Source: Gammaproteobacteria bacterium
GTDB lineage: Bacteria; Pseudomonadota; Gammaproteobacteria; Eutrophobiales; Eutrophobiaceae
Direction: 5' to 3'
Length of the DNA: 54,142 nucleotides
NCBI GenBank assembly: GCA_038922795.1
Contig: JBCKWI010000005.1
Span: forward strand, 1-54,142
This document shows positions 25,544 to 50,079 of the stretch, in pieces. Each line of letters begins with the position of its first letter. Positions within the stretch are counted from its first letter, which is position 1. The notes below the pieces were generated by a model. It made no database searches. It was not told the origin of the DNA and saw only the letters and a list, made by a program, of their open reading frames with translations. Made by a program: the position numbers and the translations under genes.

Positions 25544-26006
25544 TGTCATTTCGAATGAACGTGAGAAATCCAGAAATTTAATCTTATTTGTATTGACTCA
25601 GATTCAAGCTGGCATTGTGTGTCAGATCATCATGCTTGGAGACATAGTGAACAATTCAAATTGGCCAGTTAAAGACATTGACGAAACTGGCTCTCCGCCA
25701 TGCTGGACTGGTTGACCTCCATGGATGGAGGAAATGCATAAGGATTGTCGAACAATCCATGCCCAGCATCCAGTCGATTAAAAGTTTTTACATTTTTAGA
25801 CTAGATTACATCCTTCGCTCCGTTAGCGGCACATCCGTGTGCCACTCCTCTGGCAGGAGTTTATACCCGGAGGGTGCCAGAATGACGGGTTGGGTCGATT
25901 TAAGCTGTTCATGACAATATCCGTTTTCGGACACCTATTGTCAGATCGAATCTGAGTCAATACATCTTATTGCAACTACAGATTTCTCACTATGTTCGGA
26001 ATGACA
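25544..26006. repeat. Inverted GTCATTTCGA-N-GAGAAATC REP-like pair enclosing a MITE
   Basis: 25544-25570 and 25981-26006 are inverted copies. Confidence 0.8.
25589..25964. mobile_element. 376-bp non-autonomous element with TGT...ACA ends (IS481/IS3-like) and 7-bp TSD
   Basis: TIR TGTATTGACTCAGATTC / GAATCTGAGTCAATACA; TCTTATT repeated at 25582-25588 and 25965-25971. Confidence 0.8.
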
Positions 26007-26014
26007 GCAATTTG

Positions 26015-26548
26015 TCAATCCATAGACGATGCATCAACACCGATTTTTTCCTTGGACTGCTGTGTCTTCTGTTGTTCCCATTCTAAAATGAGTGCGCGCA
26101 GATTATCTTCATTAAGCTCATTATTTACCGGCATATCTGATTGTTCAGCGGCAGGTTCCGGCAGGGCATTGTCCGGTAAGGCAATTTCTGTTTCGCCCGC
26201 AACCGGTGCAAATGGTTCTTCCTGTAACTGCGCACCTATCTTTAATTTAAGTTGTTCTGCCTGTAGTGCCATTTGCCTGGCCTTTTCCTTATCTTCAGCA
26301 GCTTTAGCCAGTGCCTGTCCGCGTAATTCTTCCCGCGACGAATCAGAGATATTGATACTGGTATCATCAATGACCCTGCCTTTCTCAAAGACGATGACTC
26401 GAGGCCCGTTGTCCGGACTCCTGTACCATGCAGGTGGTTTGCCTGAAAGTTGGGTCGTGCCTGTTTCGGGATCAGTCCATTGATACATGCGCGCCTGAAC
26501 CGGCAGACTTGCCAACAATAAGGCCAGAAATATCAAACGCCTTGTCAT
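26015..26548 (-). CDS. Exported DUF4124-like protein
   Basis: Signal peptide followed by MYQWTDP.TG...S..PP. Confidence 0.75.
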   Translation of the reverse strand: MTRRLIFLALLLASLPVQARMYQWTDPETGTTQLSGKPPAWYRSPDNGPRVIVFEKGRVIDDTSINISDSSREELRGQALAKAAEDKEKARQMALQAEQLKLKIGAQLQEEPFAPVAGETEIALPDNALPEPAAEQSDMPVNNELNEDNLRALILEWEQQKTQQSKEKIGVDASSMD

Positions 26549-26648
26549 ATGATTTATAGCATTGCTTGGTAGACTTGCGGGAATTATAGCACTCTATAAA
26601 ATTAAAATATCCAGCCAGATAATAATACAACAATAACGGGTAACCAGC

Positions 26649-27908: not shown

Positions 27909-27911
27909 AGC

Positions 27912-28725
27912 GTCATTGCGAGCGCAGGTCTACAGGAAGTACAGAATTTCGGTGGAGAGTCTAGCCGGGAGCAGGAACCGGGTCGAACAGGGGGTTGTTT
28001 ACTGGATGCTGGTCGCTACGGACTGACGCATAGGGATATGCTAATGCCGCGATCACAAGGAGGTGAATGAGCGGCCCTGTCCTTTCGCGGCATTTCCCAT
28101 ATCCTATGGGTCGTTTTCACCAGCATGATGGTAAAGATACTTAATCAGAGGTTCCTTAGAACATTCTTCGCGTGCAGGGCACGCTCCTACAGGATGACGA
28201 CCTATGTAGGAGCACGCCCTGCGTGCGACAAAAATCATTCGCGGTAGTGGTCCGCTCCTGCAATGAAGATTTCTCGCTACGCTCGAAATGACAAACTGCG
28301 GTCGAAATGACAAACATTTTCTGTCATTTCGAGCGCAGGTCTACAGGAAGTACAGAATTTCGGTGGAGAGTCTAGCCGGGAGCAGGAACCGGGTCGAACA
28401 GGGGGTTGTTTACTGGATGCTGGTCGCTACGGACTGACGCATAGGGATATGCTAATGCCGCGATCACAAGGAGGTGAATGAGCGGCCCTGTCCTTTCGCG
28501 GCATTTCCCATATCCTATGGGTCGTTTTCACCAGCATGATGGTAAAGATACTTAATCAGAGGTTCCTTAGAACATTCTTCGCGTGCAGGGCACGCTCCTA
28601 CAGGATGACGACCTATGTAGGAGCACGCCCTGCGTGCGACAAAAATCATTCGCGGTAGTGGTCCGCTCCTGCAATGAAGATTTCTCGCTACGCTCGAAAT
28701 GACAAATCATTTTCTGTCATTTCGA
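27912..28725. repeat. 411-bp tandem duplication of a composite REP/MITE cluster
   Basis: 27919-28295 matches 28330-28706; contains a GTAG-type REP pair, an IS5-like TIR and nested ~51-bp modules. Confidence 0.9.
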
Positions 28726-28731
28726 TTACTG

Positions 28732-30579: not shown

Positions 30580-30764
30580 TTAAGGAGCCTCTGATTAAGG
30601 TGTCATTTCGAGCAAAGCGAGAAATCCTTGTCTCGACCAAAGGGACGACCCCATGGACGGGGGAGGTAGAGTTGCGCCGGGAGCAGCAACCGAGAGATCT
30701 CATTAAGATCCCTCACTTCGTTCGGGACGCCTACGGCGAATTTCTCCTTTTAGTCGAAATGACA
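30580..30764. repeat. Composite REP element with one 48-bp module (30646-30693)
   Basis: Reverse-complement homologue of 49846-50079 and 53108-53223. Confidence 0.85.
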
Positions 30765-30771
30765 GAATTTG

Positions 30772-31661
30772 TTATTTCTTTTCCTCTTCAAGCCGCTCCA
30801 GCCGTTGCATCAAAAATAGCAATTCATGTTCATCCTTGATTGCGCCACTCTCCAGCAAACCTCCTATCAATATTTTGGCGCTTTCAATTTCATGCATGTC
30901 TTCCAGCACATAAATAGGCATCTGCTTTACCCAGTGAGGAACATTCTCGACTGTCACGTGTCCGGCCAGCGCCTCTGCATAGCGCAGCGCCAGTGGTAGA
31001 TCATTTAATCTGTGCTTGGCCACATAAACAGCATGAGCAAGCGAAGGCCAGCGCCGGTTTGGATCCTCAAAAAACTTCTCATACACAAACTCAAGCATTT
31101 GCCTTTGCCTTGTTTCATCTGGCACCTGGCTATAGACACGGCTGGCGGCAAGCAACGGGTATTGTCCTCTCCTATCCAGCACCAGAATATTATCCAGCCA
31201 GCCTGTGACCTTGTTATAGTCAAGTTCCCGGAACGGGATGCTGATACCCGGTTGATTATCAAATGCCTGTAACCAGAGCATCAGCATTTTTGCAAGGGCA
31301 ACTGGATCACCCAAACTGGAAAGCTGTAATTGTTCTTTTGATAACGGTTCGGGCAATGGTCTTGCCGAAGGATCAAGCAACGGTCTCGCTGCGTGCCATG
31401 CAATCTGCGCAGATAGCGCAACAACAAGAATAATCAAAACCACGCGCGGGACATCTGCTACTGACCGTTCATTACTATTAGGGAACCTCTGAATAAGTCT
31501 AAAAATTCTTTGAATCGTCATTACTGGCACCCTCCGGGTATAAACTCCTGCCAGTATCCCCTTCCCCCTTCCAGGGGGAAGGTACGACTGCATGGATGCA
31601 GGCGGTGAAGATACTTATTCAGAGCTTCCTTAGTTATCCATGCAGGTAACAATAATTGCAT
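30772..31661 (-). CDS. Membrane-anchored hypothetical protein of the pilus/ABC locus, interrupted near codon 10 by a MITE
   Basis: Removing 31482-31629 plus one TTAG gives MQLLLPAWITNSNERSVADVP...; in-frame restart ATG at 31521. Confidence 0.75.
31482..31629. mobile_element. 148-bp MITE with IS5-like TIRs and TTAG TSD
   Basis: GGAACCTCTGAATAAGT / ACTTATTCAGAGCTTCC, flanked by TTAG on both sides. Confidence 0.82.
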
Positions 31662-33306: not shown

Positions 33307-33477
33307 ATCCCTCCCCCTTTAAGGGGGACGACTGCATGGATGCAGGAGGTAGGATGAAGCAGGATGCCAGAGTCGAGGACGCGGTGGGGGTCAAGAATAT
33401 CAAACCCGCGGTTTTCGCCCCCATCCTGACCCCCGTATAAAGTACGGGGCAGGCTTCCCCCGTCAAGTGGGAAGGTT
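33307..33477. repeat. CCCTCCCCC-type palindromic repeat containing a 48-bp module (33329-33376)
   Basis: TCCCCCTTTAAGGGGGA[module]GG...; second arm CCCCATCCTGA...TTCCCCCGTCAAGTGGGAAG. Confidence 0.75.
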
Positions 33478-33537: not shown

Positions 33538-35208
33538 ATGACCAGTGTAATGCAACCCATCATCAACCGGCGGGATTATTTTATTCTCGCCGCCATGCTG
33601 GGTTTCCTGCATGCCGCGCTCCTGATTGATTTTGGCAGTGCAATTTCCAGCGCCCTGCTGCTGATACATCTCGGGTTTTTCCTGCTCTGGCAACCTTTAC
33701 AAAAAAGTGAAGAAAAATATGCCTGGTATAATGGCATCATTTTCATAGGGCTAATGCTGGCGTTTGCCTATTGGGTCAACTGGTGGTTGATCTTTGCGTG
33801 GCTGATTTTGCTGATAGGGATAGCCGGTGGCCGGGTTGTTATCAACCGGACGGAAAGGTATGTTCTCTTTCTGGCCATGATTTTCCTCGTCTCTGAATTG
33901 TTAATTATTGCTATTCCCAGCCTGTTTACTGTCGTTTACGGTAATCCGGTTTTTAATCCTCTTAAATACGCCATCATTTTCATCCCATTGGCATTGCCAC
34001 TCTTTCCACGTCCTTATGCAAGGAAAACGGAATTGTCCGTTGATTTGTTACATGCCATCACGGCCTCGCTGCTGGTAGGCCTCCTTGCACTTGGCAGTCT
34101 GGTCATTATGTATCACAGCGGCACGGATTATTTCACTTCCCTGATTTATTCCCTCCTCGCGATCGGCACCGGCCTGCTATTGATCAGCTGGCTGTTATCA
34201 GCGCATACAGGTTTCGGGATGTTGTCCCAGCTATGGTCCAGATCGCTGTTGAATATCGGCACCCCCTTTGAACAATGGCTTGCGGAGTTATCCGCTCTTA
34301 AAGATCAACACGAATCTCCGGCAGATTTTCTGGAAGCCGCCATTGAAAAACTTGCCGCCCTGCCCTGGATATCCGGTGTTAAATGGCATATATCCGATCA
34401 ACTGAATATTCATGGAATCAAGACCAGCCATGCAATCAAACTCAGCATCAAAACATACCCTGTCACCCTTTATACCCGCGTCCCCGTTGGTGGCGCGCTA
34501 TTGTTACACTGCAAACTACTCATGAAACTGATTGAATATTTCTATATGGCCAAGGTGAATGAGCGTGAACTGGCGAACCGGGCACATCTGCAGGCCATAT
34601 TCGAGACCGGTGCCCGTATCACACACGATATTAAAAACCTTCTGCAATCCATGCATTCCATGGTCACCATACTGCAGGCGGACACGACTGAGACAGACTC
34701 AAAGTCTGTTCTTATCCTTAAAAAACAATTCCCCTATTTTATCCAGCGCCTCGAACAGGCCATGGATAAACTCCAGACGCCGCAGCAGTTCAGCAAGGAA
34801 GAGATCTATCTGATGGACTGGTGGGGGGAATTAAATGCACACTACAAGGACTACCATATTGATTTCCATGCGGAGATAGACAGCAATCCATTGATCCCGT
34901 TTGACCTGTTTAACAGTATCACGGGAAACCTGCTCGAAAATGCCATCACAAAACGCAAAGGCGAGCCTGATATCAGGATCTCCGCAAAAATAAATATCAA
35001 GGGTGACGCGATCAGCTTGATAGTTTCTGATACCGGCAAGGCCATCGATGAAAAAACTGCCGCCATGTTATTCAAGGAATCTCTGAAATCAGATAACGGC
35101 CTCGGTATAGGTCTGCTTCAGGCTGCCAAGCAGGCCGAATCCATGGGTTACACACTCAGCCTGAAATATAATTTCACCGGTAATGTGTGTTTTGAGTTAC
35201 ACAATTAG
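33538..35208 (+). CDS. Membrane sensor histidine kinase
   Basis: Many TM segments; THDIKN, NLLENA, DTG, GLGIGL. Confidence 0.9.
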   Translation: MTSVMQPIINRRDYFILAAMLGFLHAALLIDFGSAISSALLLIHLGFFLLWQPLQKSEEKYAWYNGIIFIGLMLAFAYWVNWWLIFAWLILLIGIAGGRVVINRTERYVLFLAMIFLVSELLIIAIPSLFTVVYGNPVFNPLKYAIIFIPLALPLFPRPYARKTELSVDLLHAITASLLVGLLALGSLVIMYHSGTDYFTSLIYSLLAIGTGLLLISWLLSAHTGFGMLSQLWSRSLLNIGTPFEQWLAELSALKDQHESPADFLEAAIEKLAALPWISGVKWHISDQLNIHGIKTSHAIKLSIKTYPVTLYTRVPVGGALLLHCKLLMKLIEYFYMAKVNERELANRAHLQAIFETGARITHDIKNLLQSMHSMVTILQADTTETDSKSVLILKKQFPYFIQRLEQAMDKLQTPQQFSKEEIYLMDWWGELNAHYKDYHIDFHAEIDSNPLIPFDLFNSITGNLLENAITKRKGEPDIRISAKINIKGDAISLIVSDTGKAIDEKTAAMLFKESLKSDNGLGIGLLQAAKQAESMGYTLSLKYNFTGNVCFELHN

Positions 35209-38012: not shown

Positions 38013-39893
38013 TTATGGTGTGGCAAGAACTTTTATCTGATCATTAAATATTGAGCTTGCTTTACCTTTTTCAAATATTTCATTATCAGGGGGAGTAATA
38101 ATTGAATTCATTCCCTCGAAATAACTCAACAAATCACCCGGCGCTGCTGTTCTGTCCTGCTCAATACCTTCAGCTGGATTATTAATGGCCGCCCCGGCAA
38201 TAATCACCAAGCCGCGATTATTATTCTCCGGGTTACCTGCGCCATCCAATACAAGGCAATCAGTTCCACTCGTACACACTGTCGCACTTCCGGGAGGACT
38301 CTCTGATTCCGGATAAGCTACATAAATCAATTTATGCCAGTCATTTTTTACAAACCAATCGGGTATTTCGCCATCATCAATATTAATATCGTATTGAATT
38401 GAGCCGACACTAATATTGCCATCCAGAATCTCTCCGATGCTCAAGACAAGTGTACTGGCACGCTGTCCATCATAAAGAACAGGATTGAACCATGCAGCAA
38501 ATGCTGCCAGTCCTGAGTCATAAGTGTCTGAAAGCTGAACGCTAACATTCTCTACATTGTTGTTTGATATATCCAGAGTCCTCGCTCTTGATGAAGTTGA
38601 TTCAGGATTCGCAATAATTGCATCATCAATATCTGTATATTCAAATGTGATGCTGTATGTTCTGCTGACGTTATATGTAATATCAATATCCTCTCCAAAT
38701 AAATTATGGGTTCTGGTGTAAGCTGTGGTTATCGTTTTCGTTCCATTGCATTTCATATAATTTTTTGGTTCAACATCTACCGTATTTGTCCATTCACACT
38801 GTCCAACAGCTTTGGCAATTTGAATCGGGCCATTAAGAACGCCAAAAATAGAATCCGTGCAATCATCTGATCTCATACAATTTTCGTCCGGATCAGGAGT
38901 ATCGGGGTTGCCTGAAGTGGTCAAAGTACCGTTATTTATATCCCATGCAACAGACTGTTCTGTATCAAATGGATTCCTGTTATTTGAACCATCAGGAAGG
39001 TCTTCCAGAAAATGATAAGGCAAATGTCCCTGCCATGTATTTATCACTGTCTTGAATGCAGATGTGGATGGATCAGAAAACGGACTCAGCCAGGGATAAG
39101 CATCATAATCAGTTTGATATTTTCTCAATGCCTGTGCCACTTCTCCCAATACGCGTTTTTCAACCGCCTGCATTAATTCGTCTTTGGTCAGCAGAATATA
39201 ATTATCCGTATTACTTGTTTGAATAACCTTGTTACCACTACTGAAAACAGCTTCGATATAATTTGTATGGTCATTAGGCCCAGCATCCCTGTTCTGATTA
39301 TTTTGCGGGACTCCTGGAGCAAAGATAATGGCTGCTATATCGGCCATGCCATTTACTTCAAGATTGCCGGTAGAATCACTGACAGTTTCGCTATTTTGAC
39401 GCGCCAGTTTTTTGGGATTATTCCTGAAATTATCTGCTACCACATACCACAAACGCTCACCATGACTGTCCTTAATGTCCTCAGCTTCTAGCGTTTTATA
39501 TGGAAACCTGCCAATAGAAGTTCCTCCACTCAATGAACAGCTGCCGCCAGCAGAACCATTATTGTTTATGTCTGCGCATGGTAAATAACCCGGTCCATCA
39601 ATCGGATCAGTTCCTGATTTGGCATCAATTTCCGGGAACATGACTGCATAACCAATTAACGCCTGCTTGGCCTGATTAAGAGCCATTCTTGTCCGTTCTT
39701 CACCACCCACCCTGATTAAATTTGCATTGAGCTTATTAACGAGCAGGTAAGATGTGCCGACTATCAGAACCAGCATAAAAGCCAGCACTACTGCGCCTGA
39801 TTGCTGTTTTTGCGAATCATGATTAAACACAAGATTTCTCGCTTCACTCGAAATGACAGAGGAAAGAAAGATTCCTCGGTCTCTGTTCGACAA
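38013..39893 (-). CDS. Large PilX-like pilin/adhesin; start uncertain because of repeat insertions
   Basis: KQQSG/AVVLAFMLVL; AL.QAKQALIGYA, PGYLPCAD. Confidence 0.8.
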   Translation of the reverse strand: MSNRDRGIFLSSVISSEARNLVFNHDSQKQQSGAVVLAFMLVLIVGTSYLLVNKLNANLIRVGGEERTRMALNQAKQALIGYAVMFPEIDAKSGTDPIDGPGYLPCADINNNGSAGGSCSLSGGTSIGRFPYKTLEAEDIKDSHGERLWYVVADNFRNNPKKLARQNSETVSDSTGNLEVNGMADIAAIIFAPGVPQNNQNRDAGPNDHTNYIEAVFSSGNKVIQTSNTDNYILLTKDELMQAVEKRVLGEVAQALRKYQTDYDAYPWLSPFSDPSTSAFKTVINTWQGHLPYHFLEDLPDGSNNRNPFDTEQSVAWDINNGTLTTSGNPDTPDPDENCMRSDDCTDSIFGVLNGPIQIAKAVGQCEWTNTVDVEPKNYMKCNGTKTITTAYTRTHNLFGEDIDITYNVSRTYSITFEYTDIDDAIIANPESTSSRARTLDISNNNVENVSVQLSDTYDSGLAAFAAWFNPVLYDGQRASTLVLSIGEILDGNISVGSIQYDINIDDGEIPDWFVKNDWHKLIYVAYPESESPPGSATVCTSGTDCLVLDGAGNPENNNRGLVIIAGAAINNPAEGIEQDRTAAPGDLLSYFEGMNSIITPPDNEIFEKGKASSIFNDQIKVLATP

Positions 39894-40019
39894 TATGTTC
39901 CCGACATTGTCTCGGTCTCTGTTCCAGACTCGACTCTACCGATTTCATCCCTGTAATCGTACCACCTACATCCTTGTAGGCGTCCAGACGCGACTCTACC
40001 TCCGGCATCCATGCAGTCG
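39876..40019. mobile_element. Triple-nested 48-bp modules (3 x 48 = 144 bp) inside a REP
   Basis: Outer 39876-39886 + 39983-40019; middle 39887-39911 + 39960-39982; inner 39912-39959. Confidence 0.85.
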
Positions 40020-40061
40020 TCACATTTGCTCGAAATGACAGCTTAAATAATTCAGGCATGT

Positions 40062-40820
40062 TCAATTGTCTTGATATCCCGGCGAAATTATTTTATCTGC
40101 CTCAGGATCATAGGTCTGGCCGGTTTTTAATTTAATTTTTGTTTCGTTGATCGGGATTAGAATCTCAACATCTTCCGGTTTGATATTGTGCGCATCGATC
40201 TGGATATATTGATTAGCAAAATTGCCCTCATAGGTATTGGCGCTGTTAACCCACGCAGTGCTTTTGTTTCCTTTTCGGTATACCAGTCCATTGACGGTGA
40301 TGCCGCCAATGACGGGTTTTTCTTCTGCAACTTCTGGTTCCGGTTCCATGAAAATGATTTCTGGCGCTTTTTCTTCAACCGGTTTCTGATGGCGCAGTTT
40401 TTCCAGCGTATTACGTTGCTGTGGCGTGGTGAACAGGCGGCCGAGATCGTCATCGGCGAAGGCATTTGGTGCTAATGTAAATAACAATATCGCCATAGCA
40501 GCAAGCACGGACATTGAGTAGAAGATATTATTTACTGGATACTGGTCGCTACGGACATCGTGTCCTCTCGCGACATTTCCTACATCCTGTAGGTCGCCTT
40601 CGCCAGTATGACAGCTGAAAGAATTTTTAGATTTATTCAGAGGTTCCTTAACATTACACCCCCATCCTGCCTCGGCTTTGGCTTCCTGCGTCGCTCTACC
40701 GCCTGCATCCATGCAGGCGTTCTCCCTTAAAAGGGGAAGGTGCTTTATGCTCGAAATGACAGGGCAGAGAAGATTTATCGTTCTTGCTCGAAATGACAGC
40801 TTGTGTATATATCGTTTCAT
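40062..40820 (-). CDS. Exported pilus-associated protein (LGRLFTT type) with repeat-derived N-terminal extension
   Basis: LGRLFTTPQQR..LE; ATG overlaps the upstream stop (ATGA); alternative start at 40514. Confidence 0.75.
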   Translation of the reverse strand: MKRYIHKLSFRARTINLLCPVISSIKHLPLLRENACMDAGGRATQEAKAEAGWGCNVKEPLNKSKNSFSCHTGEGDLQDVGNVARGHDVRSDQYPVNNIFYSMSVLAAMAILLFTLAPNAFADDDLGRLFTTPQQRNTLEKLRHQKPVEEKAPEIIFMEPEPEVAEEKPVIGGITVNGLVYRKGNKSTAWVNSANTYEGNFANQYIQIDAHNIKPEDVEILIPINETKIKLKTGQTYDPEADKIISPGYQDN

Positions 40821-41443
40821 GATGAGAGATTAATATCACTCCCGTTTGGTTTTTTTATATTCAGCCATCTGAGTTCACATTCCGCGGAAATGTTAACCTT
40901 GGTTGCATTTTCAATACTGATTTCGCCGGATCGCCGGATCATGCATGTTGAGATATTATATGTTCCCGGCGCCTCGGCGCTTAATGTATCAAGCAGTTTT
41001 TTCAGGTCGCCCTCATGCAATAAATCGATATTAAGTTTCATGGAGCTGCTGTATATCTGGAAAGAGCCTGTATTGATTGAATAATCAGGAACAAACCTGG
41101 ACTGTGACTCAATTCCATATCTCAAGGCAGGCAGTTTGATATAGTCGCCTGCTCTTCGCAGCGTTTCGATCCAGCTGAGCCTGCGTTCCGGGCCGATAAT
41201 GCCCTTATCGTGCAGTTTGATAAATTCGGGATAATACTGCCTGATGAGTTTCTCTTCCTGATCTATGTCGAGATACTGGTTGCTTATATTCTGAAACCGG
41301 CTTTTCTGCCTGTTATGTTCAAGCAACATTTTATCTTTGTAATACCAGGTAGCACTGATCAACGTACCGCTGACCAAAATGCTGATCATGAAGATTATGA
41401 TCGCGCCTTGCAGGACTGACCAGTCTATTTTTTCAGCCTTCAT
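40817..41443 (-). CDS. PilO-like alignment protein
   Basis: N-terminal TM, coiled coil, LLHEGDL; operon position. Confidence 0.7.
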   Translation of the reverse strand: MKAEKIDWSVLQGAIIIFMISILVSGTLISATWYYKDKMLLEHNRQKSRFQNISNQYLDIDQEEKLIRQYYPEFIKLHDKGIIGPERRLSWIETLRRAGDYIKLPALRYGIESQSRFVPDYSINTGSFQIYSSSMKLNIDLLHEGDLKKLLDTLSAEAPGTYNISTCMIRRSGEISIENATKVNISAECELRWLNIKKPNGSDINLSS

Positions 41444-43043
41444 GACGTATCCCCAATACCAGTCTCACGGAAAAATTTGCCGTGCCGGGCGCGGCATTCG
41501 AAACGCCCTGCAAACTGGCGCTTGAGCTGACATCTAGTGGCAGGGTGACAATGCTGACATCATGCACTGATGGTATGTTGCGTAATGTTTCCGCGAACCT
41601 GTTAATCATGTCCAGTGCTTCACGGTAGTTGCCATCGAAAGGACTGATATGGCCTTTCATGGCCGCTATCTGGTAATAATTATAGCCAGTGTCAACTGTG
41701 CCTATGTTACTCACTCCTACCACTCCCTGATCAGGATTGCCTGTATCAACATCGCTGATCTTGCGGTTGGGGTCCGCACTGGCGGCCAGGGCGATCTCAT
41801 CGATCTGGACCAGTGGAAACTGATCCATCCCCTTGCTGATGACCTTCAGCACATCAAAAGGGTCCGTCTTGTGTTTGCTCACGGTATCGGCAATATTAAC
41901 AACCAATTGAAGCTCTGCCGGGGTAACCGGCGTATCGGGCAGTTTTTCCCGCGCAAGCTGGTATCGCTCGCTGTAGAACTCTGATTTTTTGGCTGCGATC
42001 TCCGCCTGTTTTTTATTGACTACCGCATTCATGAAATTAAACCCGCCCCAGATCATGCCAGCCAGCATCATGCATACACTTGCTGCATACATGAAGCGGC
42101 CCGCCTTTAACATCTGGAAATAGCGTCTTTCTTCCGGCAATGCATAATAATTGTCCGGCCTGAGTTTTAGTAAATGGAAATTGAAGAGTTGATCGCTGAA
42201 CGGGGTGGTTATTCCGCGGACATTGCCTTGCTGTTCACCGAATGCATTGACATCAAGGTAATAATTCAAAATTGACGGGGATTGCGTCGATAATTTTCTG
42301 ATTTCGCCCAGTAGTTTTGGATCTGCCAGATAATAAATGTGCAATGGCTTGTCTATGTCGATCAGGCGTATGCTGTTCAGGTAGCGGCGTATGATTTCAA
42401 CTTCTTCAATGATGACCGGTGCGTAGGGCTGGGTGCCATAACGTGGCATATCAACCAGGCGGCTGATTTTAAGCTTCTGTTTGAGAAAAAATGTCTGCCT
42501 GAGTCCACTGATGCTTTGCAGGCTGGTAACCAGCATATGATCCGCCGGGTCAGGCAAGTATTTGATTAAATGTTTCGTCAATTGCGGTATGGAGTAAATA
42601 CCCGCCAGAGGTATCTTGTTCTCATGCAGAAGTTTTACCCAGGGAGAGATGAGATCAGGGTTGGTCAAACCCATGAACAGGATGCGATCATCCTTGCGGC
42701 CATCTACTTCCCGGTCCTGTATATCGGCATAGAAATAGGGCGTATCGCGGAACAACCGCGTCTTTTTTCTGCCGATGATGGCCTTTCTGTCACCGCCAAA
42801 GACATGCGGGATCGTATCTTGCCGGTATTCTTCTTCTACAAGATCAATCAGAAACCAGGTGGCTATCCTGCCGGTTTCCTTGAGATACCGATCAAAATAT
42901 TTCTGGCCGTCCGCGGACACATCGAACAAATAGGAACTGCCAAGTTTGCCGTTGGCCCAATGATATATCTCGAGCTTGTCCGCGCTCAGGAAAATAGAAC
43001 GCTGTGGCGATTTATCAAATCTTGACTTTAGAGATGAGATCAT
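41433..43043 (-). CDS. PilM/PilN-like fused assembly protein
   Basis: Cytoplasmic domain, single TM, periplasmic domain; GLRQTFF. Confidence 0.65.
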   Translation of the reverse strand: MISSLKSRFDKSPQRSIFLSADKLEIYHWANGKLGSSYLFDVSADGQKYFDRYLKETGRIATWFLIDLVEEEYRQDTIPHVFGGDRKAIIGRKKTRLFRDTPYFYADIQDREVDGRKDDRILFMGLTNPDLISPWVKLLHENKIPLAGIYSIPQLTKHLIKYLPDPADHMLVTSLQSISGLRQTFFLKQKLKISRLVDMPRYGTQPYAPVIIEEVEIIRRYLNSIRLIDIDKPLHIYYLADPKLLGEIRKLSTQSPSILNYYLDVNAFGEQQGNVRGITTPFSDQLFNFHLLKLRPDNYYALPEERRYFQMLKAGRFMYAASVCMMLAGMIWGGFNFMNAVVNKKQAEIAAKKSEFYSERYQLAREKLPDTPVTPAELQLVVNIADTVSKHKTDPFDVLKVISKGMDQFPLVQIDEIALAASADPNRKISDVDTGNPDQGVVGVSNIGTVDTGYNYYQIAAMKGHISPFDGNYREALDMINRFAETLRNIPSVHDVSIVTLPLDVSSSASLQGVSNAAPGTANFSVRLVLGIRHEG

Positions 43044-44220
43044 AAATCGGTCCTAATACGGAAAACATAACCCAGCCGATAATCGTGCCGAGCACAACAG
43101 TCATTGCAGGTTCAATCATGGTCTGTACTTTCTCAATAGATTCTTTAATGTCGCGGGTATAGAAATAACTGATATTCAGCAATGCGCCTTCCAATGCGCC
43201 TGTGTTCTCCCCTACCCTGATCATTCGCAACACCAGAGGCGGGAATAATCTGGCCTTCTCAAAACTCCTGCTCAGGGTTTCGCCTTCCGCAATCAATTGC
43301 CCGACCTGGCGCATGGCCTCTTCAATGACCTTGTTGCCGACAATCTGCTCGCCGGTGCGGATACATTCAATAATGGTTATTCCCGAGGCATACATCATGG
43401 CAAAAAAACTGGTCAGACGGGTCAGGATAATCTTTTTCAGAATCGGCCCGATGATCGGGGTCTTCAATTTCAGCGCATCGACATTATAACGGAATGAAGG
43501 GCTCACCCTGATACCTACCATAATTGCTATATACAATAAAACCGGCAACGATAAAATCAGGTACCAGTAATTTACGAACACATTGGAGACTACTATCAGT
43601 GCCTTGGTATGCGCTGGCAGTTCCTGCCCCATGGTTTTTACGAATGTGAGTAATTCAGGAACCAGATAAATCATAAGAAAAAACACAACCGCGATGACTA
43701 CACTGCCTACCACTACCGGATAGATAAGCAACTTCTTGGTTTGCGCTGCTGTTTCATCCTGCCACTTCAGGTTTTCACCAATGTTAAAAAATACCTGTGT
43801 AATTTCACCTGACTGCTCGCCTGCCCGTACCAGTGCACTGAATATTCTATCAAACACAGCCGGATAATCGCGCATGGCGTCTGACAGTGTTTTACCACCT
43901 TCAATGGATTCAATCATCGAGGCAATCACTTCACGCAGCCGTGGGTTTTCAGTACTGTCCCGGAGGTCCTGCAGGCTTTCCAGGATGGGCACGCCGGCGC
44001 GACTGGTTTGTTCAAGGTGAAAACAGAAGGTGATCAAATCCCGGCGCGTTACACCGGCGCCGGTAATTCTCTGGGTACTGGAGCCCAGTTCTTTATAATT
44101 AATCAGGTCCAGACCCATCTTGGTCAGGCGCGCCTCAAGGTCAGCGATATTGACGGCATCAACCTTGCCGTTATGTATCCTGCCGTTATCGTCGATTGCC
44201 TTGTATTTGTATGCTTCCAT
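43015..44220 (-). CDS. PilC/GspF/MshG platform protein
   Basis: AGEQSG, YP, GENTG.L, IEP, PIY. Confidence 0.93.
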   Translation of the reverse strand: MEAYKYKAIDDNGRIHNGKVDAVNIADLEARLTKMGLDLINYKELGSSTQRITGAGVTRRDLITFCFHLEQTSRAGVPILESLQDLRDSTENPRLREVIASMIESIEGGKTLSDAMRDYPAVFDRIFSALVRAGEQSGEITQVFFNIGENLKWQDETAAQTKKLLIYPVVVGSVVIAVVFFLMIYLVPELLTFVKTMGQELPAHTKALIVVSNVFVNYWYLILSLPVLLYIAIMVGIRVSPSFRYNVDALKLKTPIIGPILKKIILTRLTSFFAMMYASGITIIECIRTGEQIVGNKVIEEAMRQVGQLIAEGETLSRSFEKARLFPPLVLRMIRVGENTGALEGALLNISYFYTRDIKESIEKVQTMIEPAMTVVLGTIIGWVMFSVLGPIYDLISKVKI

Positions 44221-44269
44221 CGGGACCCTTGTTTACCGTTTGTTCACGGATACTACTTCAACCTGCTGC

Positions 44270-44435
44270 GCCTTCCCCCTGGCAGGGGGAAGGTTGGGAT
44301 GGGGGTTGAGTTTCAGCCATTCCTGAGATTTCACCCCCACCTCGACAACTGTTCCCGGCGTTGTTCTCGGTCTCCGCTCCAGACTCGACTCTACCTCCTC
44401 CTTCCTTGGAGTCGTCGCTTCGCTCGGAATGACAA
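44270..44435. repeat. Chimeric repeat: MITE core + half 48-bp module (44342-44366) + full module (44367-44414) + REP arm
   Basis: Left part repeats 44510-44579; ends TCGCTTCGCTCGGAATGACA. Confidence 0.8.
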
Positions 44436-44455
44436 ATGAATATTCATGTTAATTA

Positions 44456-44679
44456 GAACCTATCTCAAAATTAGTTTTCCGCTCTTTTGACGGAAGCAAT
44501 AATCCACTGCGCCTTCCCCCTGGCAGGGGGAAGGTTGGGATGGGGGTTGAATTTCAGCCATTCCTGAGATTTCACCCCCTCGACAACTGCTCCCGGCGTT
44601 GTTCTAACTCCTGCATCCATGCAGTCGACCTCAATCCTCCCCCGTCAAGGGGGAGGAAGTTTAATTTTGAGACAGGTTC
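44456..44679. mobile_element. 224-bp MITE = 176-bp form plus a 48-bp module (44580-44627)
   Basis: Same TIRs as 35763-35938; length differs by exactly 48. Confidence 0.88.
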
Positions 44680-44690
44680 TAATAAATTCT

Positions 44691-46406
44691 TCACTTCTGT
44701 TTTATCCTGCTGGTCAAATCAATGACACGTGACATTTCTTCCAGTGATGTTGAACCATCCAGCACCCGTGCCGAGCCTGAATCCGCCAGGGTCTTGAATC
44801 CTTTCGACAAGGCGGCGCGCATGAGTTCACGCTGGGTACCGCGCCGGGCAATGATGTCGTCCAGGTCAGTATCGAGATGCAGGATTTCCAGGATTGCCAA
44901 TCTGCCCCTGTAGCCTTGCCCTTCACATTGCTGGCAACCTTTGGCACGATAGGTAGATTGATGTTTATCCGTTACCTTCAAGTTTAGCAGCGTCCGCTCC
45001 AGTTCACTCATTTCGTAAGACTCTTTACAAACGGGACAAAGCTTTCGCACCAGCCGCTGTGCGATTATCCCGATGATGTTACCGGCCAGAATGTCCGGTT
45101 TTATGCCGATATCCATGAGGCGTGGTATCGCCGCCAGAGCCGAATTGGTATGCAGGGTTGAAAACACCTGATGTCCGGTCATCGCGGCGCGCAAGGCCAT
45201 GCTGGCCGTATCTTCATCACGAATTTCACCGACCAGAATAATATCCGGATCCTGGCGCATCATGGAACGGATACCGCTGGCAAAATCCAGCCGGGATGTT
45301 TCACTGGCCGAGGTCTGGCGGATCATGCTGGTGGGGTATTCCACCGGGTCTTCCAGGGTCATGATATTGACTGATTCGCTGTTCAGATAATGCAGAATGG
45401 AATAGAGCGTTGTGGTCTTGCCGCTGCCGGTGGGGCCGGTGATCAGGATAATGCCCTCCGGACGGGAAACCATGATCTTCAATATATTGAGCGCATCATC
45501 CTTGAGACCGAGTTTTTCCAGGGCGACAATACCACTCTGGCGATCCAGCACACGCAGGACAATATTTTCGCCATGTACCGTGGGTAATGTTGAAACACGG
45601 AAATCAACCGGGCGCCCGGAGAGAGAAAGCGAGATACGTCCATCCTGCGGGGAACGGGTTTCGGCAATGTCCATACCGGCCATGACTTTTAAACGCACGG
45701 CAATCGCTGACCAGTAATTTTTATGGATGCTGCGGATCTGGCGCAAGACTCCGTCAATTCGATAGCGGAACCTGAGGAAACCTTCTTCCGGCTCAAAGTG
45801 GATGTCCGAGGCACGGCGCTTGACCGCATCCGCCAGCAATGCGTTCACCAGACGCACTACCGGCTGGCTGTATTCATCGCTTTCCGCATCCAGACTTTGA
45901 TAATCGATCTCGCCGGTCTCGATCTCTTTCAGGATGCCATCAACGGATAATTCAAAACCATAAAACTGATCAATACATTTTTCTATTTCCGCTTCACCAG
46001 CAAGCACAGGTATTAATTCTATCTCCCTGCCAACCTGGACACTGACCTGATCCAGCACGACCACGTTAAATGTATCCGTCATGGCGATGGTCAGCTTCTT
46101 GTTTGCACTGTCATAAGTCAGTGGCAAGACATGCAGGCGGCGGGCCAGTGCTTTGGGCACCAATGTGACTGCATCACCGTCGGCAACGGCATTTTCCAGA
46201 TTGACACTGACCTGACCGATAACGCCACCAATGACATCGCGAATGATAGACTCTGTTGCAAATCCCAAACGCACCAGTATCTTGCCGAGTTTTTCCTTGC
46301 TTTTTTTCTGTTCCATCAGCGCAATTTCAATCTGATCGGGCGTGGTGACACCTTGCTGAACAAGGATCTCTCCCAGGCGTTGGACCTTTTTATTCTGGAG
46401 ACTCAC
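44691..46406 (-). CDS. PilB/GspE/MshE extension ATPase with MshEN-like N-terminus
   Basis: RLGEILVQQG, ASDIHFEP, GPTGSGKTT, RQDPD, CxxC pairs. Confidence 0.95.
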   Translation of the reverse strand: MSLQNKKVQRLGEILVQQGVTTPDQIEIALMEQKKSKEKLGKILVRLGFATESIIRDVIGGVIGQVSVNLENAVADGDAVTLVPKALARRLHVLPLTYDSANKKLTIAMTDTFNVVVLDQVSVQVGREIELIPVLAGEAEIEKCIDQFYGFELSVDGILKEIETGEIDYQSLDAESDEYSQPVVRLVNALLADAVKRRASDIHFEPEEGFLRFRYRIDGVLRQIRSIHKNYWSAIAVRLKVMAGMDIAETRSPQDGRISLSLSGRPVDFRVSTLPTVHGENIVLRVLDRQSGIVALEKLGLKDDALNILKIMVSRPEGIILITGPTGSGKTTTLYSILHYLNSESVNIMTLEDPVEYPTSMIRQTSASETSRLDFASGIRSMMRQDPDIILVGEIRDEDTASMALRAAMTGHQVFSTLHTNSALAAIPRLMDIGIKPDILAGNIIGIIAQRLVRKLCPVCKESYEMSELERTLLNLKVTDKHQSTYRAKGCQQCEGQGYRGRLAILEILHLDTDLDDIIARRGTQRELMRAALSKGFKTLADSGSARVLDGSTSLEEMSRVIDLTSRIKQK

Positions 46407-46421
46407 TTTTTATACTTTAAA

Positions 46422-48116
46422 TTATTGATTTGAAACTTGTGTCAGGTCGTTGACACGGGCCAGCACATTGGCAGTGTTGAAACTCACCTGTGTCGAATCA
46501 GTCAGCTCAAGTGCCTTGTTATAATATTCTATTGCCGCCCGCGACTGCCCGATATGATCAAGACTTACGGCAAGATTATAGGCGTAATCCGGATTATCCG
46601 GTTGCAGGCGGTGGGCCTCAAAAAATGCCTGTTGCGCTTCAGGCCAACGTGACTGGGCTGCATAATTATTACCCAGCGCAAAATGCAGGAAAGCAGTGTC
46701 AGGCTGTTCCCGGAGCATGAGTTTTATCGTGCTCTCGTTTTTCAGCGGATCAGTATTATCCTGAAGACTGATCATCCCGGTGATTGCCACAACATCTCTG
46801 GGATAAAGTTTCAGGACTTTAAGATAATACTCATAGGCGCCCCGCACATTTCCCTTACGCCAGGCAATGGCGGCATTACCCAACAGGGCATCACGGTTCT
46901 CCGGCATGGTCTTCAACACTTCCTGATATGCCGCTTCTGCTTGTATAAAATTACCTGCGTTATATTGAGCATAGGCGGCATTGATCAGTTGATCTTTTTT
47001 GTCCGCTGATTTTGTGCGGCTGATGGCAATGGCCTGTTCGTCGACCTGTATCTTTTCAGGCAATATATTATTTTCTTCCGGCATACTCTGCGTTGCCGTT
47101 GCCGTTGCCTCAATAACAGGTGGTTTCCAGTCCGCAACTTCAGGTCCGGATATGGCCATTGGTCCAGGTTCACCTGCTGCAACCTCAGGCTGCTCAGATC
47201 CCGCAACCGGTGCGGCCGGGGATTCCATCGTTGCTATGGTTGCTGCCTCCGGCAAGACGGCGCTTGCGGATACTGGTGCTTCTTCCGCCGGCAACGGGAC
47301 AACAAATGCCGGTAGCGCGTCAACTTCCACCCCTTGCGCGACTAATGGAGAAGAAACTTCCGGCGTTAAAGGTGTGATCTTGAGATAATAAAACGTGCCA
47401 GCGGCAGCCATAATGACGGCAAACAATCCAAGGAAAACCACCCACTCCATAACTTTCCGTTGACCGGAAACACCGCCAACCGCACTGAACACAGTCTGGG
47501 CTGCAACCGGTGTAGGGGCTGTCTTGCCAAGGCTGCCGATATCTCTGGCCAGTTCGGCGGCACTGATGACTGATTTGAAGGAGCGGCTGCCGCTTAACGT
47601 ATCCGTAAACTTGTCTTTGAGCAGGTCATCGCCTGTATCATCAAACGGAGGAATTGAATCCTCTTCTATACTAATATCCGTCAGGGCAAATGATTTATCG
47701 TCGCCCGGCGTGGGTTGCTTTTCATCATTTAAATCATGCTCATCAAATGATCCGGAAAGACCGGCATGTTCAATGGTGACATCTTCCAGGAACAATGATT
47801 CAGGTTCAGTTTTTTTAGCGCCCGGATGGGTTGTTGATAACTCTGGACCAGGTTTATGTTCGACTGTGTTCTCATCAAGCGCCGGGAGGGACAGCCCTGA
47901 AGAGCTTTTTTTTTCTGTAACGATTGATGATCCTGCCTGTCTGGTTTCTTCTTTTGACGGCCCGTCCTTTTGCCACGGTGTTTCCGCCGTATCCTGCTGA
48001 TCATCCGACTGCAGTTTAATCTGCTCGCCGGTCCTTTCCTGGGCTTCCTTGAGTCGTTTGGCTGCCTCCTTTTTTTCCTGTTCCGCCTTTTTCAAGGCAT
48101 CCATTAACAGGCTCAC
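46422..48116 (-). CDS. TPR protein (MshN-like), single TM
   Basis: MSLLMDALKKAE start; C-terminal TPRs (FALGN, YNLAVSLD). Confidence 0.8.
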   Translation of the reverse strand: MSLLMDALKKAEQEKKEAAKRLKEAQERTGEQIKLQSDDQQDTAETPWQKDGPSKEETRQAGSSIVTEKKSSSGLSLPALDENTVEHKPGPELSTTHPGAKKTEPESLFLEDVTIEHAGLSGSFDEHDLNDEKQPTPGDDKSFALTDISIEEDSIPPFDDTGDDLLKDKFTDTLSGSRSFKSVISAAELARDIGSLGKTAPTPVAAQTVFSAVGGVSGQRKVMEWVVFLGLFAVIMAAAGTFYYLKITPLTPEVSSPLVAQGVEVDALPAFVVPLPAEEAPVSASAVLPEAATIATMESPAAPVAGSEQPEVAAGEPGPMAISGPEVADWKPPVIEATATATQSMPEENNILPEKIQVDEQAIAISRTKSADKKDQLINAAYAQYNAGNFIQAEAAYQEVLKTMPENRDALLGNAAIAWRKGNVRGAYEYYLKVLKLYPRDVVAITGMISLQDNTDPLKNESTIKLMLREQPDTAFLHFALGNNYAAQSRWPEAQQAFFEAHRLQPDNPDYAYNLAVSLDHIGQSRAAIEYYNKALELTDSTQVSFNTANVLARVNDLTQVSNQ

Positions 48117-49780
48117 GGACTTGCCACTCCCCGTGCACCAGGCACTGTTGACTGTTGATCCAGAAATGTATTGTAAAAATTCAGATCGCTATCAAGGCTC
48201 GGGTTACGTATTACTAATGGCCTGATAAAGATGACTGTTTCAGTTTTACTATATTCAATATTGCGCGTTTTGAACAGATTTCCTAACAAACCTAGTTTAG
48301 AAGTACCGGGAAGACCTGCATCCCTTACTGAAGACCGGTCCTCCATCAATCCGCCAAGTATCGCAACCTGCCCGCTGTTGAGCCTGATGATTGATTCCAT
48401 CTCCTGTGAAACGGTTTCCGGGATAAAATTATCAAGAATCGTTGCTGTTCCCCCACCAGCAGCAGGTACCGGTATCGCCTTTTTCACGCCTGTATCACGT
48501 GAAATGGTCGGGCGCACCAGCAGAATGATCTCATCATTCTCCGCAATGTGGGGAGTGATCGTCATGACGATACCAATTGGCAGTTGGTGTATCGTCGTGT
48601 CAAACGACTGGGTAGTTCCCGCCACACTTGTCGCGGTACTACCTTCGACAGTAAAGAATACCTTGTTTTCAATACGCTTAAGTATGGCTGTCTGGTTATT
48701 CAGCGCCATCAATTGCGGGCTGGACAATACCTTGACATTACCAAACTCTTCCAGCAACTGGAGTGTCGCTTCTGTATCAGAATCTTCGTAATTCACAACC
48801 AGACCCTTAGCCCCTGATATTGCCGCTGCTGCGAGTGTCCCAAAGCCTGTTCCCAAAGTGCTGGAAGTAATAGCAAATGCGCCAAGTTCTAGAGATTTCC
48901 AGTCTATGCCGGCCTGGTATTCATCACTCAAACCAACTTCAACAATCGTGATCTGGATAAGTACCTGGCGCCGGACATTATTCATGACCTTGTCGATGAA
49001 TGCCTGAATCTGCTCATGTTGTTTTGTGGTTGCATTGACCGAGATCGTCCCGGTTTCCGGGCTGGTGATCACTGCATCCGAGATCGGGACTTCACTACCC
49101 GATGAGGCAGTAACTTTTTCGCCTATGATGGCCTGAATATTATTGGTGATCGCCACCCAGAAACGGTTTAAAGACGTACTGGTCAGATCCGTCGTTGAAT
49201 TATTCCCGGAGAATGCGCCGCCGCCCTGTCCGCCGCCCTCACTGCCACCAACACTGGTGGTAGCCAGGGATGTCGCCACGGTATTGGTATTTACCGTATC
49301 GCGGGCAATATTCAGATAATCAATTTTATAGGTTCTGAAGAAGGGTAAATCCGGCTCAACAAACAGATTATCGCCCTGGTATTCGTAGCGCATATCAACC
49401 TGGCGGCCGATGCGGTCCAGGATCTGGGGCAGGGTTTGATCAACCGCGTTGATAGTGACATTGCCATCGATGCGCGGATCGATATCGACATTGATCTTGG
49501 CGTCGCGGGCCAGCGCGAACAAGAGTTCCTTGGCCGGCACTTCATTCACCACCACGGTATATTTTTCCTGTTCCACGGGGGGTTGTGGCGCGGGCAGGAT
49601 GGGGGTTTTCTGGACCAGTTCCGGGATTTGTCCGGCTGGTTTTGTGTCGCTCTTTATATGGCCAGCCGACGGTTCGAAGGGTTTGGGTTCAATTTCGGCA
49701 CAACCAAACACCAGAAACGCCACAAGGCCGAACAGCACCGGTTTTAACTTGTTCAACTCCATATCCCCCATATAGCCCAT
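48113..49780 (-). CDS. Lipidated secretin (MshL-like)
   Basis: VFGC lipobox; RQVLI..TIVEV, VLSSP, LNNQTA, LGGLM. Confidence 0.9.
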   Translation of the reverse strand: MGYMGDMELNKLKPVLFGLVAFLVFGCAEIEPKPFEPSAGHIKSDTKPAGQIPELVQKTPILPAPQPPVEQEKYTVVVNEVPAKELLFALARDAKINVDIDPRIDGNVTINAVDQTLPQILDRIGRQVDMRYEYQGDNLFVEPDLPFFRTYKIDYLNIARDTVNTNTVATSLATTSVGGSEGGGQGGGAFSGNNSTTDLTSTSLNRFWVAITNNIQAIIGEKVTASSGSEVPISDAVITSPETGTISVNATTKQHEQIQAFIDKVMNNVRRQVLIQITIVEVGLSDEYQAGIDWKSLELGAFAITSSTLGTGFGTLAAAAISGAKGLVVNYEDSDTEATLQLLEEFGNVKVLSSPQLMALNNQTAILKRIENKVFFTVEGSTATSVAGTTQSFDTTIHQLPIGIVMTITPHIAENDEIILLVRPTISRDTGVKKAIPVPAAGGGTATILDNFIPETVSQEMESIIRLNSGQVAILGGLMEDRSSVRDAGLPGTSKLGLLGNLFKTRNIEYSKTETVIFIRPLVIRNPSLDSDLNFYNTFLDQQSTVPGARGVASP

Positions 49781-49820
49781 GAACTGGACTCTTGATTATA
49801 AACTACCAAACAATAATCCT

Positions 49821-50079
49821 ATAGGACCTCTGATTAAGTTGTTATTGTCATTTCGACCGTAGGGACGCCCTTGCATGAATGCAGGCGGTAGAACCACGCC
49901 GGGAACAGTGATCGAGAAATCCGTCGTAGGCATCCCGAACGCAAGTGAGGGATCTTAATGAGATCTCTCGGTTGCTGCTCCCGGCGCAACTCTACCTCCC
50001 CCGTCCATGGGGTCGTCCCTCCGGTCGAGACAAGGATTTCTCGCTTTGCTCGGAATGACACCTTATCAGAGATTCCCTA
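49821..50079. repeat. Composite REP element in IS5-like TIRs with two modules (49866-49915, 49968-50015)
   Basis: Homologous to 30580-30764 and 53081-53223. Confidence 0.85.

Follow-up and report, generated by a model that had tools for sequence, protein, structure and literature searches.

The locus and its repeat modules

The DNA analysed here is contig JBCKWI010000005.1 (54,142 nucleotides; the whole contig, C5 of the assembly, is called the window below) from the draft genome of a gammaproteobacterium of the family Eutrophobiaceae, which comprises 1.92 Mb in 127 contigs, is 72.6% complete, has 48% G+C and is 84% coding according to open reading frame (ORF) calls. Its minus strand carries a row of genes of an MSHA-type pilus, and in this row, as well as elsewhere in the window, lie short repeat modules whose hairpins expose GGA in the loop. 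The initial annotation had interpreted these hairpins as portable binding sites for the RNA-binding regulator CsrA. We find that the covarying GGA-loop hairpin is real, indeed stronger than had been stated, and that it forms part of a widespread two-hairpin module of about 48 nt. Judged from sequence, these modules are probably non-autonomous miniature mobile DNA of the repetitive extragenic palindromic (REP) or small-dispersed-repeat kind, in which the hairpin would act as the recognition and target structure of a mobiliser.

A profile search of the genome contigs retrieved 158 module copies at E≤1, the set to which copy counts refer throughout, and 103 at E≤0.001, so that the incomplete 1.9-Mb genome holds at least 158 copies in 88 arrays. 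Occurrence elsewhere was assessed in a sample of 401 genomes of the class, in which carriers and non-carriers were tallied as 23 and 377, one genome (G248) being left unscored; the tallies include four unpublished genomes (G141, G308, G039 and G296), all non-carriers, none of which is by itself the basis of a claim. Two scans of public collections added at least 117 and at least 120 stretches with the module pattern.

Anatomy and covariation of the module

The stems and loops that had been listed are all present: CTGC-ATGGAT-GCAG occurs at 31588 and 33332 on the plus strand and at 44611 and 40703 on the minus strand, CCCC-ATGGAC-GGGG at 30649 (+) and 49999 (−), CTCC-AAGGAA-GGAG at 44398 (−) and CTAC-AAGGAT-GTAG at 39966 (−). 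The two remaining hairpins, CTCC-ATGGAT-GGAG at 25717 (+) and GCAC-ACGGAT-GTGC at 25829 (−), are likewise found but belong to a different module family, which has neither the GACG nor the GGTAG flank.

Genome-wide, perfect 4-bp hairpins with an ANGGAN loop number 311; counts for the 89 other orders of the letters A, G, G, A, N, N have their median at 68 and do not exceed 147. When sites were collected by their flanks only (GACGN-N14-NNGGTAG), a procedure that avoids selecting on the hairpin itself, 51 of the 58 sites had an A.GGA. loop and 47 had four Watson-Crick pairs, with six stem types; among the 158 profile copies the A.GGA. loop is kept in 156, and the perfectly complementary stems are of nine types. 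The compensating stem changes around a kept loop, as first reported, are borne out by RNAalifold, whose prediction for 70 sequences (66 from other species and four from the window) comprises two hairpins with 12 pairs; compensatory double changes are seen at nine of these pairs, and they occur in both hairpins. Covariation in the second hairpin is unbiased because the pattern used for collecting the sequences fixed part of the first stem and nothing in the second hairpin. The second GGA that had been noted within the module is also there, and sits in the loop of this second hairpin. As to folding energy, an array of 149 nt folds better than its shuffled versions (z = −2.29, 0 of 200 shuffles).

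The consensus from other species reads GACGAC-TGC-ATGGAT-GCA-GGAGGTAGAG-CAAC-GCAGGAGCA-GTTG-CCGAG. Its first hairpin is lengthened by CGCC/GGCG pairing, or by the variant CGAC/GGAG, which includes a tandem G.A mismatch. In the second hairpin a covarying stem of 5 bp encloses the loop G[CT]N(G)GGA[GA]CA, with a GC/GC inner pair; the conserved GGTAGAG is found on the 3' side of the first hairpin and, at a distance of 2 nt, on the 5' side of the second. Three unit sizes can be told apart, namely the first-hairpin unit alone (about 23 nt, CG[A/C]C-stem-A.GGA.-stem-G.GGTA, with a GGTA end), the second-hairpin unit alone (about 24 nt, stem-G[TC]N(G)GGA[AG]CA-stem-CGA, with a CGA end) and the 48-nt pair of both. 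Where units stand in tandem the period is 48 nt, or 16 codons, as in genome G390 with copies at 2791, 2839 and 2887. The copies found in the window and the genes around them are collected in Table 1.

Table 1. Repeat modules, host genes of the pilus row and related features in the window.
Feature	Position	Strand	Description
MSHA-type pilus gene row hosting insertions	38013..52999	−	includes the genes listed next
T2SSF gene	43015-44220	−	pilus row
T2SSE/MshEN gene	44691-46406	−	pilus row
TPR protein gene	46422-48116	−	pilus row
Secretin gene	48113-49780	−	pilus row
AAA_22 ATPase gene	50097-51557	−	pilus row
Sigma-54 response regulator gene	51557-52999	−	pilus row
Complete two-hairpin module	49967..50017	−	the 51-mer of the initial annotation; GACGA-CCCC-ATGGAC-GGGG-GAGGTAGAG, then GTTGC-GCCGGGAGCA-GCAAC-CGAG; between AAA_22 and secretin genes, sense
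Degenerate module	49861..49915 (also given as 49861-49894)	+	only copy antisense to the pilus operon; first-hairpin loop ATGAAT; profile E=0.014
Module	44578..44632	−	CTGC/GCAG stem, ATGGAT loop, then second hairpin CAACGCCGGGAGCAGTTG
Module	44342..44419	−	CTCC/GGAG stem, AAGGAA loop, then two second-hairpin units in series
mshE-mshG spacer	44221..44690	.	470 nt, all repeat modules
Module	40670..40724	−	CTGC/GCAG stem, ATGGAT loop, then GCGACGCAGGAAGCCAAAGCCGAG variant of second part
Nested array	39887..40024	−	module split after TCTGGA by first-hairpin unit CTAC-AAGGAT-GTAG, itself split after GGTA by imperfect TTAC-AGGGAT-GAAA unit; then two second-hairpin units
Complete module	30644..30694	+	near-identical to the 49967-50017 copy; antisense to flanking minus-strand genes, loop intact
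Lone first-hairpin unit	31580..31613	+	CTGC-ATGGAT-GCAG; antisense to flanking minus-strand genes
Module	33324..33377	+	divergent intergenic region, upstream of histidine-kinase gene 33538-35208
Two GGA-loop hairpins of another module family	25716..25843	25717 +, 25829 −	without GACG/GGTAG flanks
MITE-like shell ends	25982-26008, 28269-28295, 28680-28706, 30740-30766, 39834-39860, 50036-50062, 53199-53225		

Nesting, insertion targets and distribution

That the modules are portable, as had been proposed, is supported by their nesting, by their patchy spread and by a site that is empty in relatives. Where one unit interrupts another, the junction is always of the same kind, for example GGTA|CGATTACAGGGAAGTAATCGGTA|GAG and GTCGGGA|CGCC...TCGA|ACAGCGATCGAGG, the unsplit form of the latter being found elsewhere in the genome. 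Empty and filled forms are also seen for ATCGC-GTCGGGAACA-GCGAT, which occurs whole as well as split after GGGA by an insert running from CGCC to TCGA. In 126 of 130 copies the base preceding CG[A/C] is A, and the four-letter words in that position are GGTA (34), GGGA (26), AGGA (14) and GAGA (11), together 85 of the 130, with junctions that are ambiguous by 1–4 nt. Modules thus land by preference in GGA loops and at the GGTA tail, and nested arrays arise as a result.

The empty site lies within the pilus row itself, where the mshE-mshG junction measures 2–3 nt in two genomes of the same family (G161 and G326), as opposed to 470 nt of modules here, so that the repeat spacer probably breaks the translational coupling of mshE and mshG. 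Carriers of the pattern amount to 23 of the 401 sampled genomes, while a reversed control pattern was found in none of the 401, and exact matches are most abundant in the present genome (37), followed by genomes with 11 and 8. Among the matches listed in the genome collection, those with a name come from Methylobacter, relatives of Pseudomonas, Shewanella and others, all of them Gammaproteobacteria. The contigs of read-set X1, from a relative differing at about 5–9% of the window positions, end at repeat spacers; one of them joins 44230 to 44455, with 224 nt skipped and 8 other letters in their place, and a second joins 49865 to 50035 with 37 other letters (likeness 85 in both). Such joins may come from other copies of the repeats and hint no more than weakly at presence/absence polymorphism.

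Within the present genome 154 of the 158 copies fall outside the ORFs that were called. The unit also occurs, in other species, in the loop or arm of an unrelated host palindrome, CCCTCTCCC..GGGA^GAGGG..GGGTGAGGG, in duplicated 3' ends of tRNA-Ser and, in genomes of the Pseudomonas group (L029, L038, L069, L077, L086, L112 and L122), in the loop of the palindrome AGCAGGCCGTTGAAAAAC..GTTTTTCAACAGCCTGCT. The latter palindrome is itself repeated, sometimes with further inserts. Five of the six reading frames of the unit are open, as read from the consensus, and units of 48–51 nt are found in frame within genes of other species for squalene-hopene cyclase, CitG, an MMPL protein and a STAS protein (loci among L027, L090, L106, L108, L070 and L103), the peptide DDC[RKM]DAGGRAT[QH]GAVAE being encoded in the first two. 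Copies within coding sequences have both orientations, one of them lying in an antisense frame inside a hybrid histidine kinase gene, and at L103 a copy fuses an Aminotran_4 ORF to a YceG ORF.

It might be argued that nothing moves, and that these patterns come about locally, by slippage, duplication or gene conversion involving short GA/GGA homologies, given that tandem 48-nt arrays do exist and that the junctions share 1–4 nt. However, near-identical units are found at unrelated loci in many orders, as well as inside unrelated genes and unrelated host palindromes, which makes an explanation by purely local events extremely improbable. In the mobile-DNA explanation that we favour, units of the three sizes would insert directly after or inside GG[T/G]A or NGGA, and the GGA loops and GGTA tails of earlier copies would serve as targets from which nested arrays build up. 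The conservation of loop and flanks along with free covariation of the stems would then reflect recognition of a folded single strand by a mobiliser acting in trans, for which a Y1/HUH transposase of the IS200-RAYT type (RAYT, REP-associated tyrosine transposase) is the leading candidate. Transcripts reading through sense copies would display near-consensus CsrA sites as a by-product.

One insertion region adjoins csrA and was considered as a possible functional link. The gene order alaS-lysC-csrA-tRNA-Ser(GCT)-tRNA-Arg(ACG) is conserved between G000 (C15:21500-27500, L125) and G167 (C41, L124), and in both genomes copies lie between the two tRNA genes downstream of csrA, in opposite orientations, so that the proximity was rejected as a sign of function. 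The copy of G167 falls within duplicated 3' fragments of tRNA-Ser, and in G000 an integrase-like ORF adjoins tRNA-Arg; from its sequence context the site looks like an insertion hot spot.

Possible CsrA sites, orientation and placement

The host does have a canonical csrA gene (C15:23913-24071), with 97 bits to PF02599 and E=2.6e-27 to the E. coli CsrA structure 1y00. The first hairpin of the module is a hexaloop ANGGAN closed by C-G, which on sequence fits the CsrA/RsmE consensus, in line with what had been recognized from the start. In the parts of PMC4347634 concerned with it (citing Dubey 2005), the consensus obtained by systematic evolution of ligands by exponential enrichment (SELEX) is RUACARGGAUGU, with ACA and GGA invariant and GGA placed in a hairpin loop. 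Variants of the type CTAC-A[AG]GGAT-GTAG equal this consensus, the loops having been compared with RUACARGGAUGU / CANGGANG; UACARGGAUGU is found exactly in 15 of the 158 copies and ACAnGGA in 62. As each module has two GGA loops, arrays of about 250 nt contain 10–20 GGA. These features are what one would expect if the modules were selected Csr cassettes, that is, if module RNA bound CsrA and thereby brought host transcripts under Csr control or acted as a dispersed sponge. Such an interpretation also finds some encouragement in the search for Csr RNAs, since in this incomplete genome neither CsrB nor RsmZ nor RsmY reaches the Rfam cut-off (the best scores are 22.1, 19.4 and 22.1 bits, where 71, 44 and 57 would be required), and sub-threshold matches of the CsrB and RsmY models (up to 22 bits) fall on arrays, on the strand that carries GGA (C11:7577-7773, C56:2951-3144 and C104:3030-3155). 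Scanned at the gathering threshold, the window yields one tRNA only, and twelve loci of other species yield PrrF, an FMN riboswitch and tRNAs, none of them on the module.

A distinct scenario emerges from the orientation of the copies. The initial annotation had counted nine copies between 39800 and 50100 with GGA on the mRNA strand, and one antisense copy that has lost it. The minus strand of this interval indeed has six full first hairpins, besides one partial one and units consisting of the second hairpin alone, and the single plus-strand copy does read ATGAAT; however, all of these occupy only four or five intergenic sites. With so few sites, and with two intact antisense copies elsewhere in the window (30644-30694 and 31580-31613), the local strand bias does not go beyond chance. 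Nor does it extend to the genome, in which 24 arrays are sense and 18 antisense (p=0.44). Counted as copies between co-directional genes, 46 are sense and 46 antisense; 78 of the 88 arrays have a single orientation and ten have both, four of these lying between co-directional genes. In other species, where only flanking ORFs of at least 220 aa were scored (64 sites), sense and antisense sites number 22 and 11 in genomes and 19 and 12 in metagenomes. Pooling everything gives 65 sense and 41 antisense, that is 61% sense (p=0.025, confidence interval 0.51–0.71), a figure that favours Csr cassettes, and 39% antisense, which does not.

Antisense copies are moreover kept equally well: all 46 sense copies and 45 of the 46 antisense ones retain an intact GGA loop, and loop and stem together are intact in 39 of 46 and 33 of 46, respectively (p=0.21). 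Sense and antisense arrays also lie at similar median distances from the upstream stop codon (124.5 and 129.5 nt) and from the downstream start codon (132 and 108.5 nt), without any preference for ribosome-binding sites, and array density is highest in convergent spacers (16 arrays in 39.3 kb, about 0.41 per kb), compared with 46 in 175.6 kb (about 0.26 per kb) in co-directional and 12 in 60.2 kb in divergent spacers. Similar distances and a convergent maximum are not the pattern expected from occlusion of ribosome-binding sites. The copies that lie inside coding sequences in either orientation speak against Csr cassettes as well.

Across the class, csrA is not enriched among carriers, being present in 19 of 23 and, for comparison, in 328 of the 377 genomes that lack the element (odds ratio 0.71, p=0.53), and carriers without a csrA match include genomes of high completeness (G161, of the same family, 100%; G361, 94%; G338, 93%), in addition to a less complete one (G138, 69%). 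Taken together, the parts of the Csr-cassette interpretation that concern the presence of csrA and the consensus loop stand, while orientation, integrity of antisense loops, placement and carriers without csrA go against it, and we regard selection of the modules as Csr cassettes as quite unlikely. Binding of CsrA by sense transcripts is, from the sequence, plausible as a by-product, and not as the reason why the motif is kept.

An intermediate possibility is that the modules are mobile DNA with an incidental but real effect on the Csr system, whereby sense copies would titrate CsrA or alter the fate of the local mRNA, and a burst of copies would have rewired Csr control. The same sequence evidence applies, and at least 46 sense copies lie between co-directional genes, including those of the pilus row. 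On the other hand, the hairpins of single units are short and thermodynamically weak, and the stoichiometry of CsrA and its sites is not estimable from an incomplete genome; an effect of this kind may exist, although we think it on balance unlikely.

The nature of the stem mismatches bears on whether RNA is the recognized molecule. There are 8 G.T as compared with 15 A.C mismatches, and hence no wobble signature of the RNA type. This lack of G.U excess counts against Csr cassettes and also against spread through an RNA intermediate or by means of another RNA-binding protein, such as homing of a reverse transcriptase into GGA loops. The asymmetry and strand specificity of the element, its modest excess in the sense direction and its insertion into hairpin loops would suit an RNA intermediate, but a unit of this kind is far below the size of known retro-elements, no associated reverse transcriptase came to light, none having been examined, and we consider this route very unlikely.

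Candidate mobilisers and points against mobile DNA

The initial annotation had offered, as an alternative to Csr, that the hairpin is the single-stranded DNA (ssDNA) recognition site of a mobiliser. This fits the present results better than Csr does, but a cognate gene was not found. Carriage tracks a Y1/HUH transposase gene rather than csrA: a Y1_Tnp gene is present in 21 of 23 carriers and in 229 of the 377 genomes without the element, which gives a naive odds ratio of 6.8 (p=0.003), and the two carriers in which it is missing are 73% and 69% complete. Two of the RAYT-like genes of the present genome score 59 and 70.2 bits on NF047646, for which the cut-off is 80. The RAYT-like genes, four in all, are flanked by classic GTAGGAGC REPs on C98 and by GGCCCCTTT repeats on C13 and C21. 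At C98:2750-3200 the classic GTAG REPs (GTAGGAGC..TGC..GC) stand in series upstream of the RAYT-like gene and constitute a separate REP family.

Several observations weigh against our interpretation of the modules as mobile DNA with a hairpin-recognizing mobiliser. The association with Y1 genes is confounded by shared ancestry and by the overall load of mobile elements. All four RAYT-like Y1_Tnp genes of the 72.6%-complete genome are flanked by other repeats, no cognate mobiliser was found, and the Y1 genes of five low-copy carriers lie at a distance from the element. A transposon that moves as lagging-strand ssDNA is expected to follow the direction of replication, and the orientation of the element has no link to the sign of the GC skew (15/26/14/23, odds ratio 0.95), though genes do follow the skew; on draft contigs GC skew is a mere proxy for replication direction. 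The pooled orientation, in turn, amounts to a modest sense excess and not to the 9:1 of the pilus row, and a role at the RNA level could also produce such an excess. Single modules fold no better than their shuffled versions (z = −0.38 and +0.42), and the gene calls on which placement and orientation depend come from a crude custom ORF caller applied to draft contigs. Because of the confounding by kinship, the foreign repeats at the RAYT-like genes, the distant Y1 genes and the missing link to GC skew, an ssDNA-hairpin mechanism driven by an HUH enzyme is only the leading inference.

Relation to known repeat families

A parallel in size is found in cyanobacteria. The small dispersed repeats of Nostoc, which Elhai and colleagues reportedly described in 2008 (Elhai et al. 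2008), are said to be mobile units of 21–27 nt that are dispersed and nested. On this description, the present modules resemble them in having units of 23–24 nt that nest after GGTA or GGGA, but their hosts are Gammaproteobacteria. An origin from cyanobacteria was considered and is not supported, there being no cyanobacterium among the at least 117 stretches listed.

The hairpin-bearing miniature transposable elements of the inverted-repeat type (MITEs) of the IS200/IS605 group, known as PATEs, have hairpins near both ends and no obvious terminal inverted repeats, use a fixed short target motif with no or ambiguous duplication, and show strand asymmetry. The modules share with them the hairpins, the lack of obvious terminal inverted repeats and the strand asymmetry, and, to judge from the 5' flanks and ambiguous junctions described above, may share the insertion next to a short motif, yet at 48 nt or less they are far shorter, no matching TnpA ends were found, and they lack a strand bias relative to GC skew. 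Rickettsia palindromic elements are comparable in that palindromic elements are tolerated in frame within protein genes; their sequences and hosts are unrelated, and RPE-1 is longer.

More extensive similarities link the modules to REP and REPIN-RAYT systems (PMC3733652, PMC3116915). In the sections of PMC3733652 describing them, REP families fall into sub-families whose stems differ by complementary changes, are found by preference in unidirectional and convergent spacers and include intragenic copies, and a GTAG REP is laid out as GTAG, a dinucleotide, a stem-loop and a 3-nt tail. Like these, the modules are short intergenic palindromes in high copy number (158), with complementary-stem sub-families, a spacer preference and in-frame copies. 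Their GTAG, 2 nt 5' of the second hairpin, and their conserved 3-nt tail recall REP GTAG-1 and GTAG-2; the comparison was by text description, and the module may equal one of the GTAG families listed in PMC3733652. Unlike in REP-RAYT systems, no RAYT-like gene examined is flanked by modules and no REPtron was found; moreover, the module stems have only 4–7 bp and the loops are conserved over 6–10 nt with GGA, and in contrast to REPINs the modules nest head-to-tail, do not form inverted dimers and, in most arrays, keep to one orientation.

With CsrB, RsmY and RsmZ the arrays have in common GGA hairpins in series and a GGA within a C-G-closed hexaloop that fits RUACARGGAUGU as given in PMC4347634. 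They differ from these RNAs in falling below the Rfam cut-offs and in forming 88 dispersed arrays of both orientations, as compared with one or two dedicated genes.

A full-text search retrieved no paper containing the module sequence, though the supplements of PMC3733652 and PMC4853749 were outside this search and may list the family. By title or abstract, no literature linking CsrA with repetitive extragenic palindromic sequences and no matching literature on Beggiatoa repeats was found. The Thiomargarita MITEs differ from the module as far as the main text of PMC4853749 describes them.

Implications

The modules constitute a family with clear ends, a clear target motif (GGNA and GGA loops) and a broad distribution, and its carriers include the cultivable Methylobacter tundripaludum SV96, Shewanella metallivivens and Ectopseudomonas chengduensis DSM 26382; being well defined and present in such carriers, the family makes its mechanism testable. 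We know of no established mechanism for nesting, apparently moving elements of 23–48 nt. A bolder proposition would be that mobile modules of this size, carrying consensus CsrA sites, home into GGA loops, and that a burst scatters high-affinity CsrA sites among operons, creating an evolvable genome-wide Csr sponge and regulon. We hold this to be decidedly doubtful; if true, it would connect a selfish element with a global RNA regulator in a new way, and the modules, which might exploit CsrA or the structure of the GGA loop in spreading, would rank among the smallest mobile units known outside cyanobacteria. Short of this, expansions of the family could shift Csr regulation as a side effect, each sense copy being a near-consensus CsrA site. 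At a practical level, assemblies are interrupted at spacers by the modules, which also give rise to spurious or fused ORFs, and this is relevant for the annotation of metagenome-assembled genomes.

Other repeats in the window

Other repeats accompany the modules. Small modules are often enclosed by a larger shell that resembles a MITE and has the ends TGTCATTTCGAGC...GCTCGAAATGACA (repeat families D4 and D8; Table 1). Palindromes of the type CCTTCCCCCTGGCAGGGGGAAGG, followed by GGTTGGGATGGGGGTTGA, lie beside modules at 44262-44300, 44505-44545 and 35887-35954, and represent another host palindrome family in which modules land. Downstream of a Na+/H+ exchanger gene there is a perfect direct repeat of 300 nt (27912-28211 and 28323-28622, with a spacing of 411 nt), which holds other GGA-loop hairpins, GCAT-AGGGAT-ATGC and TCAC-AAGGAG-GTGA. 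Finally, an ORF of 1321 aa (11672-15637) contains 21-nt tandem repeats at 11750-11893 (family D5), and internal repeats of 131–173 nt occur in the same region at 13452-14539.

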